Below, one piece after another: positions 13,269 through 19,786 of a stretch of DNA of 64,000 nucleotides. The notes under the pieces are model-generated. The model was not told the DNA's origin. It saw only the letters and a program-made list of their open reading frames with translations, and did not search any database. Position 1 is the first letter of the stretch, and each line of letters opens with the position of its first letter. Both the position numbers and the translations under genes were made by a program. Source of the DNA: Escherichia phage vB_EcoM_C2-3. The DNA lies in the sequence record OK076929.1. One strand, given 5' to 3'.

Positions 13269-13651
13269 AATTCAGCGACTTTTCACAAAGTGGAAAACCT
13301 TCAAAGGCAGATGAATACTTAGGTTTATTAATGGCTGCACAAGCTTATTTTCATTCTGCACATTTTGAAACTAAAAGTTATGCTAGACACAAAGCATACG
13401 ATTTTATTTTCTCCGAGTTGCCAGATTTGATTGATAAATTTGGTGAGCAATATTTGGGGTATTCTGGTAGAAAATACACGCCTTCAATTCCAGATGCCAG
13501 TAAACTTCCTACCGACACAATTAAAATGATTGATCGCATACTAGATCAATCTAACAGCATTTATAAAGAAATGCCTCCAGCCATTCAAAGCACGATAGAT
13601 GATATTACTGGAATGTTTTACCAGAGTAAGTATCTTCTTTCCCTCGAATAA
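13265..13651 (+). CDS. hypothetical protein (128 aa)
   Basis: ORF track; ATGA overlap with rI stop. Confidence 0.55.
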
Positions 13652-13654
13652 CAT

Positions 13655-13679
13655 TAGTCTCCTTCGGGAGACTTTTTTC
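13655..13679 (+). terminator. intrinsic terminator (agtctcc-ttcg-ggagact + TTTTTT)
   Basis: 7-bp stem, UUCG loop, T6 run. Confidence 0.65.
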
Positions 13680-13688
13680 ATTTTACCG

Positions 13689-13718
13689 GTTTACTTTCCG
13701 TTTGAGCTGTGGTACTAT
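13689..13718 (+). promoter_or_regulatory. early promoter
   Basis: gtttac 13689-13694, tggtactatacaactatc cassette. Confidence 0.5.
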
Positions 13719-13746
13719 ACAACTATCGGATAAAGAGGAGAACATC

Positions 13747-13935
13747 ATGAAAATTGAAGCACTTAATCAAGAAGGAAATATCTACGTCATCATTAATGGT
13801 GATTTTTTCGTCGACATGGATGAAGTTACTAGTGAAGAACTTGTAGAACTTCTTAAGAAACGTTATGATATGTGTGATGAAGCTGCAACTCATATGGCGT
13901 GTGCAATATTCTCTCTTTCATATGTGGTGGAATAA
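13747..13935 (+). CDS. hypothetical protein (about 63 aa)
   Basis: Start moved to ATG after AGAGGAG SD. Confidence 0.5.
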
Positions 13936-14138
13936 TGACTAGAATTGAACAAGCAGATAAAATTAAAGAATTGGTAGCTTTAATTCGCAAAGCAGATGAG
14001 GAACTTAGTGACTTTGCTTGGTTTTCGGCAGGCATTGCAAATAAAGGTATTGAAAAATTTGAAGCTAAAGTTGATAATGCTGTAGAAGCTTTAGATATGT
14101 TTCTTGATGAAATTATCGATCATAATACGAGAGTTTAA
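13935..14138 (+). CDS. hypothetical protein (about 67 aa)
   Basis: Start moved to ATG overlapping upstream stop. Confidence 0.45.
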   Translation: MTRIEQADKIKELVALIRKADEELSDFAWFSAGIANKGIEKFEAKVDNAVEALDMFLDEIIDHNTRV

Positions 14139-14140
14139 TT

Positions 14141-14335
14141 ATGCTAACACGTGAACAGTTTGAAAAAATCATTAAATTAGCACGTGATATTGAAATAGAT
14201 TCATACCAATTAGCAGTTGAGCATTGTGAAGGATATTCATACGACGGTATAGAAGCAGCTAAAAAGGATTTGGATAAATCCAAAGCTAAGTTAGTTCAAT
14301 ATCTTGAAATGATTAGGTGGAATAATGAAAACTGA
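14141..14335 (+). CDS. hypothetical protein (64 aa)
   Basis: ORF track. Confidence 0.45.
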   Translation: MLTREQFEKIIKLARDIEIDSYQLAVEHCEGYSYDGIEAAKKDLDKSKAKLVQYLEMIRWNNEN

Positions 14336-14498
14336 AAAGCAGATGTTTTTAATGAAACTAATTGAAGAATATGCTAATGCAGTTTCTGACTATGAGTATT
14401 CTGCTCGGGAAAGAGGTACAGCTTTCGCAAAGGAAGAAATGAAAATCATGGTTGATGCTCACACAAAGCTTCAGAATTTTATTGAAAACGCCATTTAA
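14325..14498 (+). CDS. hypothetical small protein (57 aa)
   Basis: Overlap-coupled small ORF below size cutoff. Confidence 0.35.
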   Translation: MKTEKQMFLMKLIEEYANAVSDYEYSARERGTAFAKEEMKIMVDAHTKLQNFIENAI

Positions 14499-14500
14499 TG

Positions 14501-14537
14501 GTTTACAAGTTGGCAAGATTATGATATAGTAATCTTG
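14501..14537 (+). promoter_or_regulatory. early promoter with -10 inside perfect 8-bp inverted repeat
   Basis: gtttac 14501-14506; caagatta (14514-14521) / taatcttg (14530-14537) flank tgatatag. Confidence 0.5.
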
Positions 14538-14665
14538 TCAACTGCCAAGGAGAAGAGAATGAAAGTTTTGTTTGTTGTGTATGTGATGATTCAATATAAT
14601 TATCCAATGTTTACTTATAATCTGGTGAACAACATTATTGATATTATTCAAAGGAGTATGTAATT

Positions 14666-15223
14666 GTGGGTGAGTCGAAGAGAATCAATATGAAACGATT
14701 AGTATTAGAAGTTAGTCCGCTTTTTGGTGAATTAGCTATAGAAAAAGTAAATAATATGTATCGTTTGACACAAGAAGACGATATGCTATATTTTACGCCT
14801 AGTGAAATCATTCATTTAACCCAAATTGAATATCCTTATACTGATAAAATAGTAAGCATCAATGATGAGCACAAAATTCATTTTTATTCTTCATGCCCAG
14901 GATTTAATATTAAAAGTGAGTCAATGTGTTTATCAGTTATCCATTGGGATAGTTTTATAGATAAGATTAAATATTTTTATTATTCTAATGAAAGAAAACA
15001 TAGTTTAAAATGGCTCAAAAATTGCAATGCTATTATTACTAACGCTTGCAATCAGAATGATGAAACTGTTTTAAACGTATCAAAATGCTATGAAGATGGT
15101 GATGTCTTAACTATTCGTCAAATTGATGATTTTCGATCGTATATTGTCACATTTACCAAAGACGAAGCTATTGCGCTAAAGACTTATCTCGATTCTGTCA
15201 TTCCAACTATGATTTCAAAGTGA
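14666..15223 (+). CDS. hypothetical protein (185 aa), paralog of next ORF
   Basis: GTG 14666 after AAGGAG, or ATG 14690; C-terminal DEAIALKTYLDSVIPTM shared with 15230 ORF. Confidence 0.5.
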   Translation: MGESKRINMKRLVLEVSPLFGELAIEKVNNMYRLTQEDDMLYFTPSEIIHLTQIEYPYTDKIVSINDEHKIHFYSSCPGFNIKSESMCLSVIHWDSFIDKIKYFYYSNERKHSLKWLKNCNAIITNACNQNDETVLNVSKCYEDGDVLTIRQIDDFRSYIVTFTKDEAIALKTYLDSVIPTMISK

Positions 15224-15229
15224 GGAAAT

Positions 15230-15751
15230 ATGTTTATTTCAAGTGGAAGTGGTTTAATTCGTGTTGAATTTAAAAATGACATCTTTCTTATTCAAGGAGA
15301 TGATATTATTAAAATGAGTTATGACGAAATCAAGAAAATTTGTCATGCTCTTGAAAGTCATGGAAAAGTGAACGCTGTTATTGATATTGGCGATTTATGG
15401 GTGACACTTTATGAAGTATCCGAAGGATTTAACATTGAAGATGAAAATAACATTTTAGCTATTGATAAAAGAAGTGATTTGTTTGATGTATTAAAAGTTT
15501 ATGAACAGTCAAATGGCGGAAGAAAAGCTGTATTGATTTATCAAAAACCGCATTCATGTGGAACTGCTTCAATCATTTCAAATATTGAAGATGAAACTGA
15601 TACTTATATGTGTGTTTTAAAAGCCGGTGGTGACCGTCATCCGGATTTTATTTCTATTCGTCAAAACAATGAAGAAATTTCATTATCAAAATCAGAAGCT
15701 GAAGCTATGATTAAGTATTTAACAACTGTTACACCTTCAATGAAAGGATAA
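15230..15751 (+). CDS. hypothetical protein (173 aa), paralog of previous ORF
   Basis: C-terminal SEAEAMIKYLTTVTPSM matches upstream ORF motif. Confidence 0.5.
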   Translation: MFISSGSGLIRVEFKNDIFLIQGDDIIKMSYDEIKKICHALESHGKVNAVIDIGDLWVTLYEVSEGFNIEDENNILAIDKRSDLFDVLKVYEQSNGGRKAVLIYQKPHSCGTASIISNIEDETDTYMCVLKAGGDRHPDFISIRQNNEEISLSKSEAEAMIKYLTTVTPSMKG

Positions 15752-15753
15752 TT

Positions 15754-16215
15754 ATGATTATTAATGAAAACTCTTGGCACTATAAATTATTCAAACTGTT
15801 TAACGACGAATGGAAACGACCTAAGACACTGTGTGCATACTTTTGGTCTATTGTTATCCCTACATTTTTCGTTTCTTTTTTCGGATGTACTATACTCGCA
15901 GGTCTAACTATTATCTGTGCAGAAATCATACAGAAATGGCTTATTTTTGGTAGTTTATGGACTCTTATTCCATCAGCATTTATACTTGCCATTTTGCTTA
16001 TTTTACTTATTATTGGTTCATTTGTTATTCCTGCACAACTGCATGAAAAATATAAAGATTATAAATGGAAAAAGGATTATGCTTTACATGTAGAAAATAT
16101 TGATAGGGCGTATAAAGGTTTACCTCCTATTCAACCCAAGAAATCTATTATCGTCGAATTTTTAAAAGCGCGTAAAGCTAAAGTATGTCCTGTTATTGAA
16201 TATAAGGCTGAATGA
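15754..16215 (+). CDS. hypothetical membrane protein (153 aa)
   Basis: Two long hydrophobic segments; ATGA overlap with downstream gene. Confidence 0.5.
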   Translation: MIINENSWHYKLFKLFNDEWKRPKTLCAYFWSIVIPTFFVSFFGCTILAGLTIICAEIIQKWLIFGSLWTLIPSAFILAILLILLIIGSFVIPAQLHEKYKDYKWKKDYALHVENIDRAYKGLPPIQPKKSIIVEFLKARKAKVCPVIEYKAE

Positions 16216-17225
16216 TGAAAACAGTAATGAAAAGCTATTTTGGTAGTCATCTTTATGGAACTTCTACCCCAGAATCTGATGTAGATTTTAAAGAAATCTT
16301 TGTTCCTCCTGCTCGTGATATTCTTATTGGAAATGTTAAAGAGCACATGAGTAAAAACACTAACAACACATCATCTAAAAACACTAAAGATGATATTGAC
16401 CATGAACTATACAGTCTTAAATATTTCTTTAAATTAGCAGCAGATGGTGAAACTGTAGCGTTAGATATGCTTCACACTCCACCTGAACTAGTGGTTAAAT
16501 CTGATTTGCCTGATGTGTGGAAGTTTATTCAAGACAACCGTTCTCGTTTTTATACGACTAACATGAAATCATATTTAGGATATGTCCGCAAGCAAGCTTC
16601 TAAATACGGCGTCAAGGGTTCTCGTTTGGCTGCATTACGTGATGTATTGAAAGTAGTTAATCAAATCCCTGAGCAATGGGTTGATTACCAAGAAGACGGT
16701 TCCATTAAGCAGCGTCGTACTAAAGTTGAAGATATTAAGCATCGTCTTCCAGAAAACGAATTCTGTGAATGGGTGTTCCATAATCATGAGAAAACAGGCC
16801 CACAAACGTTCTACACTGTGTTGGGTCGTAAATATCAGACAACGCTTTCTCTTATTGAGCTTAAGCAGTCACTGAACAAATTAGATGCTGAATACGGTGA
16901 ACGTGCTCGTAAGGCCGAAGCCAATGAAGGTATTGACTGGAAAGCTCTGAGTCATGCTTGCCGTGGTGGACTCCAACTATTGGAAATTTACAAAACTGGT
17001 GACTTAGTCTATCCACTCAAAGATGCTCCATTTATTCTCGACGTGAAGTTGGGTAAGCATCCATTTAAAACAGTTCAAGAGTTTTTGGAAGATGTGGTCG
17101 ATCAAGTAGAAGCAGCATCTACTGAAGCTTCTAAGAACGGTATGCAGCAAAAAGTGGACATGGGTTTTTGGGATGACTTCCTTGAGAAGGTCTATCTTGA
17201 AAACCACCGAAGTTATTATAAATGA
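16212..17225 (+). CDS. nucleotidyltransferase-fold protein (Pol-beta-like NTase motif)
   Basis: hG[GS]x(9-13)DhD pattern: FGSHLYGTSTPESDVDF near N-terminus; 337 aa. Confidence 0.5.
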   Translation: MMKTVMKSYFGSHLYGTSTPESDVDFKEIFVPPARDILIGNVKEHMSKNTNNTSSKNTKDDIDHELYSLKYFFKLAADGETVALDMLHTPPELVVKSDLPDVWKFIQDNRSRFYTTNMKSYLGYVRKQASKYGVKGSRLAALRDVLKVVNQIPEQWVDYQEDGSIKQRRTKVEDIKHRLPENEFCEWVFHNHEKTGPQTFYTVLGRKYQTTLSLIELKQSLNKLDAEYGERARKAEANEGIDWKALSHACRGGLQLLEIYKTGDLVYPLKDAPFILDVKLGKHPFKTVQEFLEDVVDQVEAASTEASKNGMQQKVDMGFWDDFLEKVYLENHRSYYK

Positions 17226-17226
17226 T

Positions 17227-17257
17227 AGGGAGCCTTCGGGCTCCATTTTTTTTTTTA
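17227..17257 (+). terminator. intrinsic terminator (gggagcc-ttcg-ggctcc + T10)
   Basis: UUCG-loop hairpin followed by ten T. Confidence 0.7.
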
Positions 17258-17280
17258 TTTCAAAAATTTTTCACAAAACT

Positions 17281-17310
17281 GTTTACAAACATAAAGCTTT
17301 ATGGTACTAT
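17281..17310 (+). promoter_or_regulatory. early promoter
   Basis: gtttac 17281-17286, tggtactatacaactatc cassette. Confidence 0.5.
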
Positions 17311-17346
17311 ACAACTATCAAAACAAACACTTAAACGGAAAACAAA

Positions 17347-17496
17347 ATGAAAATTACACCAATTGAAGTAAAAAAGTTGATTGATACAGAAGAAATTTCA
17401 GAGTGTTTTGAAAGTTTCTTAGAAGACGCAACTGAAGATAACGCGGTTTATCTCGCCCAGAAAATTATCGAAACTTATTTGGAGAAGAATCAATGA
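17347..17496 (+). CDS. hypothetical small acidic protein (49 aa)
   Basis: Small ORF, ATGA-coupled to downstream ORF. Confidence 0.35.
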   Translation: MKITPIEVKKLIDTEEISECFESFLEDATEDNAVYLAQKIIETYLEKNQ

Positions 17497-17756
17497 CAGT
17501 TTACGTAGATGTTTTAATGAATCATGGATGGAAACTTCGCGGTCATCCAACTAAAAATTGTCATATGTTCACTGATGGAGATATTGAAGAGCTTCACGAA
17601 ATGGCAGAAGCAATAGGAATGAAACGTTCTTGGTTTCAAGATAAACGCATTAAACATTATGACTTACACGCTCGGCGACGCCAAAAAGCTGTAGAACTTG
17701 GAGCTGTAGAAGTATCTCGTCGCGAAGCAGTAAAAATTTGGCAAACATTAAAATAA
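17493..17756 (+). CDS. hypothetical protein (87 aa)
   Basis: ORF track. Confidence 0.5.
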   Translation: MTVYVDVLMNHGWKLRGHPTKNCHMFTDGDIEELHEMAEAIGMKRSWFQDKRIKHYDLHARRRQKAVELGAVEVSRREAVKIWQTLK

Positions 17757-17759
17757 ATT

Positions 17760-17789
17760 GTTTACAGAAGGGTAGTAGTGTGATACTAT
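17760..17789 (+). promoter_or_regulatory. early promoter
   Basis: gtttac 17760-17765, tactat -10. Confidence 0.45.
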
Positions 17790-17825
17790 TACCCTATCAA
17801 AACAAATGTGAAATTGGAGAATAAA

Positions 17826-18794
17826 ATGAAAACTGTAACTATCAATAAGGGTATCTACTTCGGTAAAGAAATCTCTGGAACTTTTGAGCTCTTAGGCGAA
17901 TGGTTCCCAGATAATGCTCCGGTAGATGCACAAGGAGATGGTAAAGTTTTTGTTGAAATTGACGGTAAACGTCGCGGTGTTTGGGTTTACAAATCAGACA
18001 TTTCATATGATGGTGTAAAAGTTGAAGAAGTTAAAGAATCATATGAAGATATGAAAACCCGCATTAATAAAAGATTTAATGTTATGGGAATGATGACGAA
18101 TGGTATTATTAACGGAAACATTCGTTCATTAATTATCTCGGGAGCAGCAGGTATTGGTAAAACGTATTCTTTAGATAAAGCTTTAAATAAAGCAAATGAT
18201 ATTGGATACATTGAATATAAAAGCATTAACGGTAAAATCTCTGGTATCGGTCTTTATGAACAGCTCTGGAATAATCGTGAAGAGAATTCTGTCCTTTTGA
18301 TTGATGATGTGGATGTTTTCTCTGATATGGACATTCTTAATCTTCTGAAAGCTGCTCTGGACACTGGAGAGACCCGTAAAGTCTGCTGGAGCACTGCATC
18401 TTCTTACTTAGAAGAAAAAGGCATTGAGCGTGAGTTTGAATTTAAAGGAACGATTGTTTTTATCACAAACGTTGACATTGACCGCGAATTAGACCGTGGT
18501 ACTAAACTTGCTCCACATTTACAAGCATTAGTGTCCCGCTCGGTTTATTTGGATTTGGGTGTTCACACTAATGAAGAAATTATGGTCAGGGTTGAAGATG
18601 TTATTCTTTCAACTGACATGATGCAAAAGCGCGGTCTTTCTGATGAAGAAACTTATAAAGCATTATCATGGATGAAAGTCAATGTTAACCGTTTACGCAA
18701 TGTTTCACTGCGTACTGCACTTTATCTTGCTGACTTTATTATGACCGACAAAAACGGTTGGCAAGAAATCGCTGAGGTTACTCTTCTGAAATAA
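17826..18794 (+). CDS. P-loop ATPase (Walker A SGAAGIGKT, Walker B LLIDDVD)
   Basis: Start moved to ATG 17826 after GGAG; Walker A and B motifs in central domain. Confidence 0.55.
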   Translation: MKTVTINKGIYFGKEISGTFELLGEWFPDNAPVDAQGDGKVFVEIDGKRRGVWVYKSDISYDGVKVEEVKESYEDMKTRINKRFNVMGMMTNGIINGNIRSLIISGAAGIGKTYSLDKALNKANDIGYIEYKSINGKISGIGLYEQLWNNREENSVLLIDDVDVFSDMDILNLLKAALDTGETRKVCWSTASSYLEEKGIEREFEFKGTIVFITNVDIDRELDRGTKLAPHLQALVSRSVYLDLGVHTNEEIMVRVEDVILSTDMMQKRGLSDEETYKALSWMKVNVNRLRNVSLRTALYLADFIMTDKNGWQEIAEVTLLK

Positions 18795-18892
18795 TTCATA
18801 AGAGGACTTCTATGACAAAAAGGCAGTTCAGAAATAGATTATATGGACTGCCATTAAAAAGATGACTAGAATTAAACTGGTAAATGGAGGTA

Positions 18893-19198
18893 ATGATGTT
18901 ATACTCAAAGGCTCGTGAAATTTACGAAACTAAGATTAAAGAAGCTGTACTTCAATTCGCAACAACGATGCGATGGACAAATGATTGGGAGTATTCAAAA
19001 AATCATAAGAAGCCCATGGTGACAAGAAAGGCTCATATGTTAGTGTTAATAGACCGTGAGCAGATTAAAGCCCGAGAAGCCCTCCAGAATCATAAAAAGG
19101 CTGCCTTTGAATGGTTTATGGATAACACTGCTCCTGAAACTAAGAAAGCAGTGAGCGCATGGTTCAGTGGAAAAAATTGTGAAAGAAGTTTCTTTTAG
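18893..19198 (+). CDS. hypothetical protein (about 101 aa)
   Basis: Start moved to ATG after GGAGG SD. Confidence 0.5.
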   Translation: MMLYSKAREIYETKIKEAVLQFATTMRWTNDWEYSKNHKKPMVTRKAHMLVLIDREQIKAREALQNHKKAAFEWFMDNTAPETKKAVSAWFSGKNCERSFF

Positions 19199-19200
19199 TG

Positions 19201-19230
19201 GTTTACAAGACTGTTCCTCTGTGGTACTAT
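19201..19230 (+). promoter_or_regulatory. early promoter (repeat cassette)
   Basis: gtttacaagactgttcctctgtggtactatacaactatcaact identical to the 45896 copy. Confidence 0.55.
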
Positions 19231-19258
19231 ACAACTATCAACTACGGAGGAACACAAA

Positions 19259-19786
19259 ATGAACGCTAAAGATATTTTCAACCTGGTAAATTACAACGAT
19301 GGTAAATTTAAATCTGAAGCACAAAGCAAGTTCTTTAATGACATCTCAATCGGAGGTGAAATCACGGTTGATGGAGGACAAATTTACAAATCCCGTTGGA
19401 ATTGGATTGTTATTATCGATGAGATTGGTATTGTAGAAATTTACAAGAATACGAATAAAAATCGTACATTACACTGGTCTCGTGATACTAACGAACAGTA
19501 CAAAAAGGATAAAGCATCTAAGTTATCTCGTGTAACTCAAGAAGATATTGAGTTCATCAAGAAAGATATTTTGATGTATGATAACTTAATTGCTGAAGAG
19601 CAAGCTGTTATTGATAAATTTGATGAGATTAAAGCTTCTCGTGAAATTCCTGATTTTATGAAAGAATCAGTAAATGAACGATACTCTCTCATTTCAGAGC
19701 GTATTGAAACTTACAAAAAGCAAAGAGCTGAACGCCAGAATACTCTTCGGAAGTTTGAAGAACGGTTAAAGACGGTACTCGCATAA
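19259..19786 (+). CDS. hypothetical protein (175 aa)
   Basis: ORF track; GGAGG SD. Confidence 0.55.
   Translation: MNAKDIFNLVNYNDGKFKSEAQSKFFNDISIGGEITVDGGQIYKSRWNWIVIIDEIGIVEIYKNTNKNRTLHWSRDTNEQYKKDKASKLSRVTQEDIEFIKKDILMYDNLIAEEQAVIDKFDEIKASREIPDFMKESVNERYSLISERIETYKKQRAERQNTLRKFEERLKTVLA

Follow-up and report, generated by a model that had tools for sequence, protein, structure and literature searches.

Do the genes at positions 14,666 to 18,794 of a 64,000-nucleotide stretch of Escherichia phage vB_EcoM_C2-3 (OK076929.1; the whole stretch is called the window here) form one system, and what is the role of the nucleotidyltransferase (NTase) encoded among them? A sequence-only reading of the window had described five adjacent genes, for a pair of paralogs, a two-helix membrane protein, a Pol-beta NTase and a P-loop ATPase, and had suggested that the NTase, ATPase and membrane protein might together serve nucleotide signalling, defence or anti-defence. 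We find that the genes of the block are independent accessory genes and not one signalling or defence system. It seems fairly probable, if well short of certain, that this is an ordinary variable piece of the rI-nrdC region, made of at least four independently evolving early-gene units, in which the NTase, NrdC.11, is an RNA-repair enzyme and the ATPase, NrdC.10, stands alone.

Most of the argument turns on the NTase gene:

16212..17225, plus strand: nrdC.11, encoding an RlaP-family Pol-beta nucleotidyltransferase of 337 aa (Pfam RlaP/PF10127)

The Pol-beta signature noticed in this protein proved genuine. NrdC.11 matches the RlaP/PF10127 hidden Markov model (HMM), whose cutoff is 23 bits, with 44.1 bits (E 2.6e-11) over residues 7-135 only, and aligning its profile with that of 12 canonical RlaPs by hhalign gave 94.5% probability (E 7.8e-8) over residues 3-139. 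The Pol-beta catalytic set, G11, S12, D23, D25 and D63, is invariant in an alignment of 88 sequences, as are the motif GSHLYG...SDVDF and residues N57, Y132, R231, K244, H248, R251 and K279. The structure model places the catalytic residues on beta1/helix, on beta2 and on the beta strand 62-68; the C-terminal half is helical and ends in a long terminal helix, and the helical domain gave HEPN-like matches. Homologues are abundant, with 827 clusters at E <= 1e-30 among 1.8 billion representative proteins, mostly full-length at about 320 aa. Single-protein and profile sequence searches of the PDB with NrdC.11 and with canonical RlaP found nothing significant, in a copy of the database that lacked the PfRlaP structure.

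As the profile homology covers only residues 3-139, NrdC.11 represents a distinct RlaP subfamily. Asked which kind of NTase this is, the family searches answered RlaP, with no CD-NTase or cGAS match and with MntA below its cutoff. Judged by its sequence, NrdC.11 is thus a predicted catalytically intact RlaP-family Pol-beta nucleotidyltransferase, neither a CD-NTase nor an MNT. The fold, family HMM match and adjacent effector expected of a CD-NTase or cGAS-like protein were not found for it, and, as regards an MntA-type antitoxin, there is no separate HEPN gene adjacent to nrdC.11.

Pseudomonas RlaP adds one or two nucleoside monophosphates to the 3'-OH of RNA, an activity shown for PfRlaP and PaRlaP only, and the same 2025 preprint placed T4 NrdC.11 in the RlaP family as a member of unknown function (10.64898/2025.12.29.696909). 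Within the family, Carruthers et al. (2025) place T4 NrdC.11 in cluster 5 of a sequence similarity network (SSN). NrdC.11 resembles the Pseudomonas enzymes in its GS / DxD / D set and in having an N-terminal NTase core followed by a helical C-terminal domain, and its bacterial relatives lie in RtcB and Pnkp/Hen1 operons. It differs in length, by some 80 additional residues, and in its beta-sheet insert (155-209) and a helical C-terminus of its own. The phage gene does not sit beside a ligase gene, and the activity of NrdC.11 is a predicted one.

The gene neighbourhoods of the bacterial relatives point in the same direction. We examined 80 bacterial and archaeal genome loci encoding full-length NrdC.11-type proteins of 33-54% identity. 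At 30 of the 80, a gene for RtcB, Pnkp, Hen1 or canonical RlaP lay within 6 kb of the NTase gene, identified by Pfam matches with E values of 3e-116 (RtcB), 1.2e-168 (Pnkp), 6.6e-110 (Hen1) and 5.4e-79 (canonical RlaP). At several loci Pnkp lies immediately upstream of the NTase (gap -3 to +11), and RlaP or Hen1 comes straight after it. These RNA-repair neighbours tie the NrdC.11 subfamily itself, and not just canonical RlaP, to RNA repair. The ATPase, membrane protein and MobD.1 have no homologue at any of the 80 loci, and of 69 bacterial NrdC.11-type genes just 2 had an adjacent open reading frame (ORF) with multiple transmembrane (TM) segments on the upstream side, and 1 had one on the downstream side.

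Two further observations concern these relatives. A canonical RlaP (250-290 aa, matching PF10127 over its full length) often directly follows the bacterial NrdC.11-type NTase, about 970 nt from the NTase start and sometimes inside Pnkp/Hen1 operons (loci L128, L130, L142, L145, L152, L155, L159, L175, L177-L179, L192, L193, L196 and L202); so frequent a tandem suggests that the two proteins have distinct sub-functions. The top 'bacterial' matches to NrdC.11, at 52-54% identity, came from a Bacilli metagenome-assembled genome (L124) and Flagellimonas marina (L125). Homologues of rI.-1 lie about 4 kb upstream on both contigs, joined on L125 by one of rI; the two contigs probably represent sequence of a T4-like phage or prophage that was placed in bacterial assemblies during binning.

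RNA repair was discovered in phage T4, where the Pnkp/Rnl1 pathway of tRNA repair is established. The RlaP family membership of NrdC.11, its intact catalytic residues and the operon context of its relatives all argue that its most likely role would be to add nucleotides to damaged RNA 3' ends, aiding T4 tRNA repair against anticodon nucleases. In a template-independent reaction, NrdC.11 would extend the 3'-OH end of a broken RNA by one nucleotide or a few, acting upstream of ligation by the phage Pnkp/Rnl1 pathway. The outcome would be the repair of tRNAs that had been both cut and trimmed by a RloC-type host anticodon nuclease, in line with the prediction of Iyer et al. (2021) that phage RlaPs restore the nucleotides removed by RloC before ligation (PMC7824862). 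Both the RNA substrate and the action against anticodon nucleases are what we infer for NrdC.11. Any anti-defence function would then be carried by the NTase alone: that part of the earlier suggestion is plausible, while a defence or anti-defence role for a joint module is not supported.

The surroundings of nrdC.11 show why the block is not a single module. From end to end, the part of the window from 14000 to 19300 shares 97-98.5% identity with hundreds of Tequatrovirus genomes, and it runs in reverse relative to the T4 map. Its gene order, the same as in T4 from mobD.1 to nrdC.10, is rI, rI.-1, mobD.5 to mobD.2, mobD.1, a second mobD.1-family gene and the membrane protein gene, and then nrdC.11, a terminator, a 49-aa ORF, a DUF4031 gene, nrdC.10, and nrdC.9 onward. 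The features flanking nrdC.11 are:

14666..15223, plus strand: mobD.1, T4 Y05I family (T4_y05I_N 3.6e-39, T4_y05I_C 1.4e-20; PHROG 1502; annotated as MobD.1 in relatives and T4)
15230..15751, plus strand: second mobD.1-family paralog, 173 aa (same two Pfam domains; no match in T4, locus L002)
15754..16215, plus strand: membrane protein of 153 aa, basic, with two transmembrane segments and a C-terminal tail rich in lysine (hydropathy; PHROG 944 'membrane protein', 4.6e-50)
17229..17255, plus strand: intrinsic terminator with a 6-bp GC stem, UUCG loop and U11 tract (terminator scan; fold)
17282..17310, plus strand: early-type sigma-70 promoter, TTTACA-17-TACTAT with an extended -10 TG (promoter scan)
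17347..17496, plus strand: 49-aa acidic ORF, first gene of the cassette (PHROG 6888, 5.5e-31; annotated in relatives)
17493..17756, plus strand: DUF4031 protein of 87 aa, second gene of the cassette (Pfam DUF4031 1.1e-21; PHROG 4887; annotated in relatives)
17761..17789, plus strand: early-type promoter unit, second copy; drives nrdC.10 (promoter scan; T4 sequence comparison)
17826..18794, plus strand: nrdC.10, AAA+ ATPase of 322 aa (Walker A G106-T113, Walker B D160/D161, sensor-1 N215, R238, R291/R296)

NrdC.11 and NrdC.10 are 98% and 99% identical to their T4 counterparts. Sequence comparison found no T4 counterpart of the second mobD.1 paralog, the membrane gene or the cassette of the 49-aa ORF and DUF4031; in T4 the mobD homing endonuclease occupies the site of the second paralog and the membrane gene. 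T4 thus retains nrdC.11 and nrdC.10 in the absence of the membrane gene and second paralog, and in L004, another close relative, mobD.1, the second paralog and the membrane gene are all missing. T4 also tolerates deletion of nrdC.11-mobD.3 (PMC9825161), which fits the expectation for accessory genes. A PADLOC scan of all seven block proteins gave no match at E <= 0.1, and an NCBIfam scan gave noise-level matches only.

Transcription signals divide the block after nrdC.11. A terminator followed by new promoters had been read from the sequence correctly: the hairpin GGAGCC-UUCG-GGCUCC with its 11 U folds at -12.2 kcal/mol (z -3.08), and it also follows nrdC.11 in T4. An Rfam scan of 13500-19500 on both strands returned only a sub-threshold L20-leader match, lying over the terminator. 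The roughly 600 bp read as terminator and promoters contains two genes that had been missed, the 49-aa ORF and the DUF4031 gene, so the block has seven genes, not five. Two copies of the promoter unit bracket this pair. In T4 the terminator and a single early promoter, identical to the unit at 17282-17310, directly precede nrdC.10 (compare L002 11322-11435, minus strand). The proposed module of NTase, ATPase and membrane protein is therefore split by a terminator, two early promoters and a two-gene cassette, with nrdC.10 under its own early promoter.

The pair itself looks like a laterally transferred cassette of the PeSL (promoter early stem-loop) type, as far as its sequence features indicate. 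It is 94-96% identical in three phage loci (L025, L026 and L034) despite only 68% identity of NrdC.11 and 73% of NrdC.10; the DUF4031 protein is 94% identical in phages whose NrdC.11 is at 68%, and in other genera DUF4031 is located beyond nrdC.10. A search for direct and inverted repeats around the cassette found no long repeats apart from the promoter units. Modular shuffling through PeSL promoter-terminator units has been described for T4-type phages (Arbiol et al. 2010; Comeau et al. 2014). What the cassette shares with PeSL cassettes is a terminator stem-loop and early promoter unit flanking small ORFs that are present or absent between otherwise identical genomes; what differs is that its membership is judged from the promoter duplication and the comparison with T4, not by a motif model.

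Upstream of nrdC.11, the two ORFs taken for paralogs are indeed related (BLASTP 28% identity, E 4e-10). Both belong to the Y05I/MobD.1 family (PF24449 and PF24448), with T4_y05I_N matches of 133.8 and 118.5 bits and T4_y05I_C matches of 73.8 and 83.3 bits. The start of mobD.1 is uncertain: the protein has 185 aa if it begins at GTG 14666, or 177 aa from ATG 14690, the choice annotated in relatives. Within the start region (14658-14692), GTG 14666 lies 9 nt downstream of an AAGGAG that belongs to the end of mobD.2, and the ribosome-binding site of ATG 14690 is weaker. Inside the mobD.1 coding sequence, at 14765-14792, lies the region's closest match to the sigma-70 consensus (TTGACA-16-TATATT, 11/12, with TG), which may be a promoter within the gene or, the DNA being AT-rich, a coincidence.

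The membrane protein has the two helices ascribed to it, long hydrophobic segments with hydropathy peaks at residues ~27-56 and ~62-93, and a pI of 9.3. PDB searches with the single protein and its profile, and the PADLOC scan, gave no match. Its TGA stop overlaps the ATG of nrdC.11 in the ATGA at 16212-16215, as had been noted. The membrane gene directly abuts nrdC.11 only in a Tequatrovirus/Mosigvirus-like subset; elsewhere one to three ORFs lie between them. In most genera a MobD.1-like gene, often just a y05I_C domain of 72-90 aa, is immediately upstream of the two-TM gene, about 1-2 kb upstream of nrdC.11 (L005, L016, L020, L021, L024, L025, L030 and L031 are examples). This MobD.1-like and membrane gene couple is the tightest conserved pair of the stretch, tighter than that of the membrane gene and nrdC.11. 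T4-like phages of the Klebsiella, Enterobacter and Cronobacter types have a conserved two-TM ORF of 78-88 aa that overlaps the nrdC.11 stop by 4 nt (L016 11011-11247, L020 10317-10577, L025 11008-11268, L031 11008-11274 and six others); it is unrelated to the 153-aa protein encoded upstream of nrdC.11 in the window.

The association of nrdC.11 with nrdC.10 decays with evolutionary distance. We looked for nrdC.10 within 10 kb at 70 nrdC.11 loci that had 8 kb or more of sequence on each side, and found it at 33. By NrdC.11 identity, it was present at 29/36 loci at 60% or more, 4/17 at 50-60% and 0/17 below 50%. Conversely, nrdC.11 was near nrdC.10 at 8 of 30 fully flanked nrdC.10 loci, all eight with NrdC.10 identity of at least 60%, and at none of 22 distant ones. 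The genes are 112 to 2290 bp apart, with differing small ORFs occupying the space between them. On one viral contig (L058/L091) the two lie in non-overlapping regions at least 19 kb apart. The numbers of phage-collection records with NrdC.11 and NrdC.10 also differ, 286 and 149 for Klebsiella and 59 and 121 for Vibrio. As their adjacency is confined to collinear genomes, it reflects shared ancestry. The synteny comparison across T4-type genomes therefore went against a joint block, which is not kept outside close relatives, and what the sequence-only reading had itself named as its alternative, ordinary conserved nrdC-region genes, largely applies.

NrdC.10 is, by its sequence, a well-conserved AAA+ ATPase that appears to lie outside any known AAA+ family. 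Its recognition as a P-loop ATPase from the Walker motifs was sound: the ATPase motifs are invariant in 45 homologues, and it has Walker A, Walker B, sensor-1, an arginine finger or sensor-2, and a helical lid. The structure model (predicted local distance difference test, pLDDT, 89.7) shows an N-terminal beta domain (residues 1-62), an AAA+ core, an insert between Walker B and sensor-1, and the lid. Its classification went no further than AAA+, as none of the specific families considered (MoxR, NtrC, MCM, DnaA/Cdc6, clamp loader and STAND) accommodates it. Pfam matches to the MCM, MoxR (NorQ, CbbQ), NtrC and DnaA/Cdc6 groups were all below threshold, a PDB profile search gave E 0.14 or worse, and the N-terminal 62-residue beta domain sets it apart from the known groups. 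It forms its own phage family (PHROG 1250) and occurs in about 1,300 phage records, with homologues 53-100% identical across T4-like phages of many hosts and distant ones in Vibrio and jumbo phages. Pfam scans of eight distant homologues gave generic AAA matches only, and clustering the neighbours of 34 distant homologues revealed no conserved partner, just antisense ORF artefacts. NrdC.10 is probably an oligomeric, most likely hexameric, remodelling ATPase that acts independently.

Taken together, the block may be pictured as at least four units. The two MobD.1 (Y05I-family) paralogs and the two-TM membrane protein would form the first and NrdC.11 the second. The third would be the cassette of the 49-aa ORF and DUF4031, inserted from promoter to promoter in the manner of PeSL modular shuffling, and the fourth nrdC.10, a stand-alone conserved phage AAA+ ATPase under its own early promoter.

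Several points weigh against this picture and against RNA repair by NrdC.11. Homology to canonical RlaP ends at residue 139, and the C-terminal half, the beta insert 155-209 with the helices, is subfamily-specific, so its choice of substrate could differ from that of RlaP. There is no RNA ligase or kinase gene near nrdC.11 in the window; the RNA repair genes of T4 are located elsewhere in its genome. The literature searched held no experiment on NrdC.11 or NrdC.10. At 23 of 78 phage loci nrdC.11 is abutted by a gene for a protein with at least two TM segments, compared with a background of 5.7%, and two unrelated small two-TM genes, in different lineages, each overlap nrdC.11 by 4 nt. This could hint at a membrane link, although the 23 loci count as only about two independent lineage events. 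Finally, nrdC.10 follows nrdC.11, 112-2290 bp downstream, in 8/8 fully flanked, collinear enterobacterial and Acinetobacter T4-like loci with NrdC.10 identity of at least 60%, and there may be a lineage-restricted functional link between the two. With the high co-occurrence among close NrdC.11 homologues, this is what would be expected if NrdC.10 and NrdC.11 cooperated in enterobacterial T4-like phages, the ATPase, for example, delivering or unfolding damaged tRNA or nuclease complexes for the NTase. Such cooperation is nevertheless quite improbable. Collinearity extends throughout these phages, each of the two genes has a promoter of its own with a terminator lying between them, neither is found near distant homologues of the other, their counts differ between genera, distant nrdC.10 homologues lack a conserved neighbour, and no nrdC.10 occurs at the bacterial NrdC.11-type loci.

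The membrane genes invite comparison with Hailong, in which HalA is a membrane channel and the HalB NTase makes oligo-dA that keeps the channel closed (PMC13434031). The two-TM protein and NrdC.11 might act as HalA and HalB, or NrdC.11 might replenish the oligo-dA that keeps a host HalA closed; the order of membrane gene then NTase, with its 4-nt overlap, mirrors the halA-halB operon (PMC13434031), and HalB (PDB 9dbh/9dbj) is the closest solved structure to NrdC.11. We regard this as very unlikely. The structural likeness amounts to 15% identity over 162 residues with no sequence-profile link, HalB is a protein-primed enzyme of about 217 aa, and neither protein resembles HalB or HalA in sequence, the membrane protein having no sequence similarity to any solved structure. 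It is also not conserved with nrdC.11, being separated from it by other ORFs in most genera, travelling with the MobD.1-like gene and missing from T4 and L004, and upstream multi-TM ORFs are rare beside the bacterial genes. The pairing that defines Hailong, a HalB-family NTase with a co-conserved HalA channel gene, was not found. The likeness to HalB and the small membrane genes overlapping nrdC.11 in two lineages also prompt the reading of a phage HalB/HalA counterpart or HalB mimic, in which NrdC.11 would make a short nucleic-acid ligand instead of repairing tRNA; this too is very unlikely. A CBASS-like (cyclic oligonucleotide-based anti-phage signalling system) arrangement, in which the NTase would produce a nucleotide second messenger while ATPase and membrane protein served as sensor or effector, can point to the three protein types being encoded on the same strand within 3 kb. 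It is extremely unlikely and largely refuted here: there is no cGAS/CD-NTase match in structure or sequence and no PADLOC match, the NTase and ATPase genes are parted as described, the membrane gene is absent from T4, co-location fails outside close relatives, and the bacterial relatives have RNA-repair genes as neighbours, not effectors. NrdC.11 might instead nucleotidylate a small molecule or protein, as kanamycin or lincosamide nucleotidyltransferases or MntA-type antitoxins do. This is unlikely, as its family is RlaP and not ANT or MntA (the MntA model scores 13.2 bits against a cutoff of 60), its bacterial relatives sit among RNA-repair genes and it has no HEPN toxin partner. ANT(4') and MNT-HEPN proteins belong to another sequence family, and NrdC.11 has a much larger C-terminal region and a gene context of neither antibiotic resistance nor toxin-antitoxin kind.

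The identities of these genes were already known: the NTase (COG3541) and AAA assignments of nrdC.11 and nrdC.10 were published in 2006, nrdC.11 is labelled a nucleotidyltransferase in Pfam, PHROGs and RefSeq, and the link between RlaP and T4 was made in the 2025 preprint. The idea of RNA repair by NrdC.11 is in the literature too. For genome scans, this locus is a caution that finding genes for an NTase, an ATPase and a membrane protein side by side in a variable region of T4 is no evidence of a system. If NrdC.11 does restore the nucleotides trimmed by RloC-type nucleases, it would be a third enzyme of the classic Pnkp/Rnl1 pathway and would add a new layer to the arms race between phage and host.

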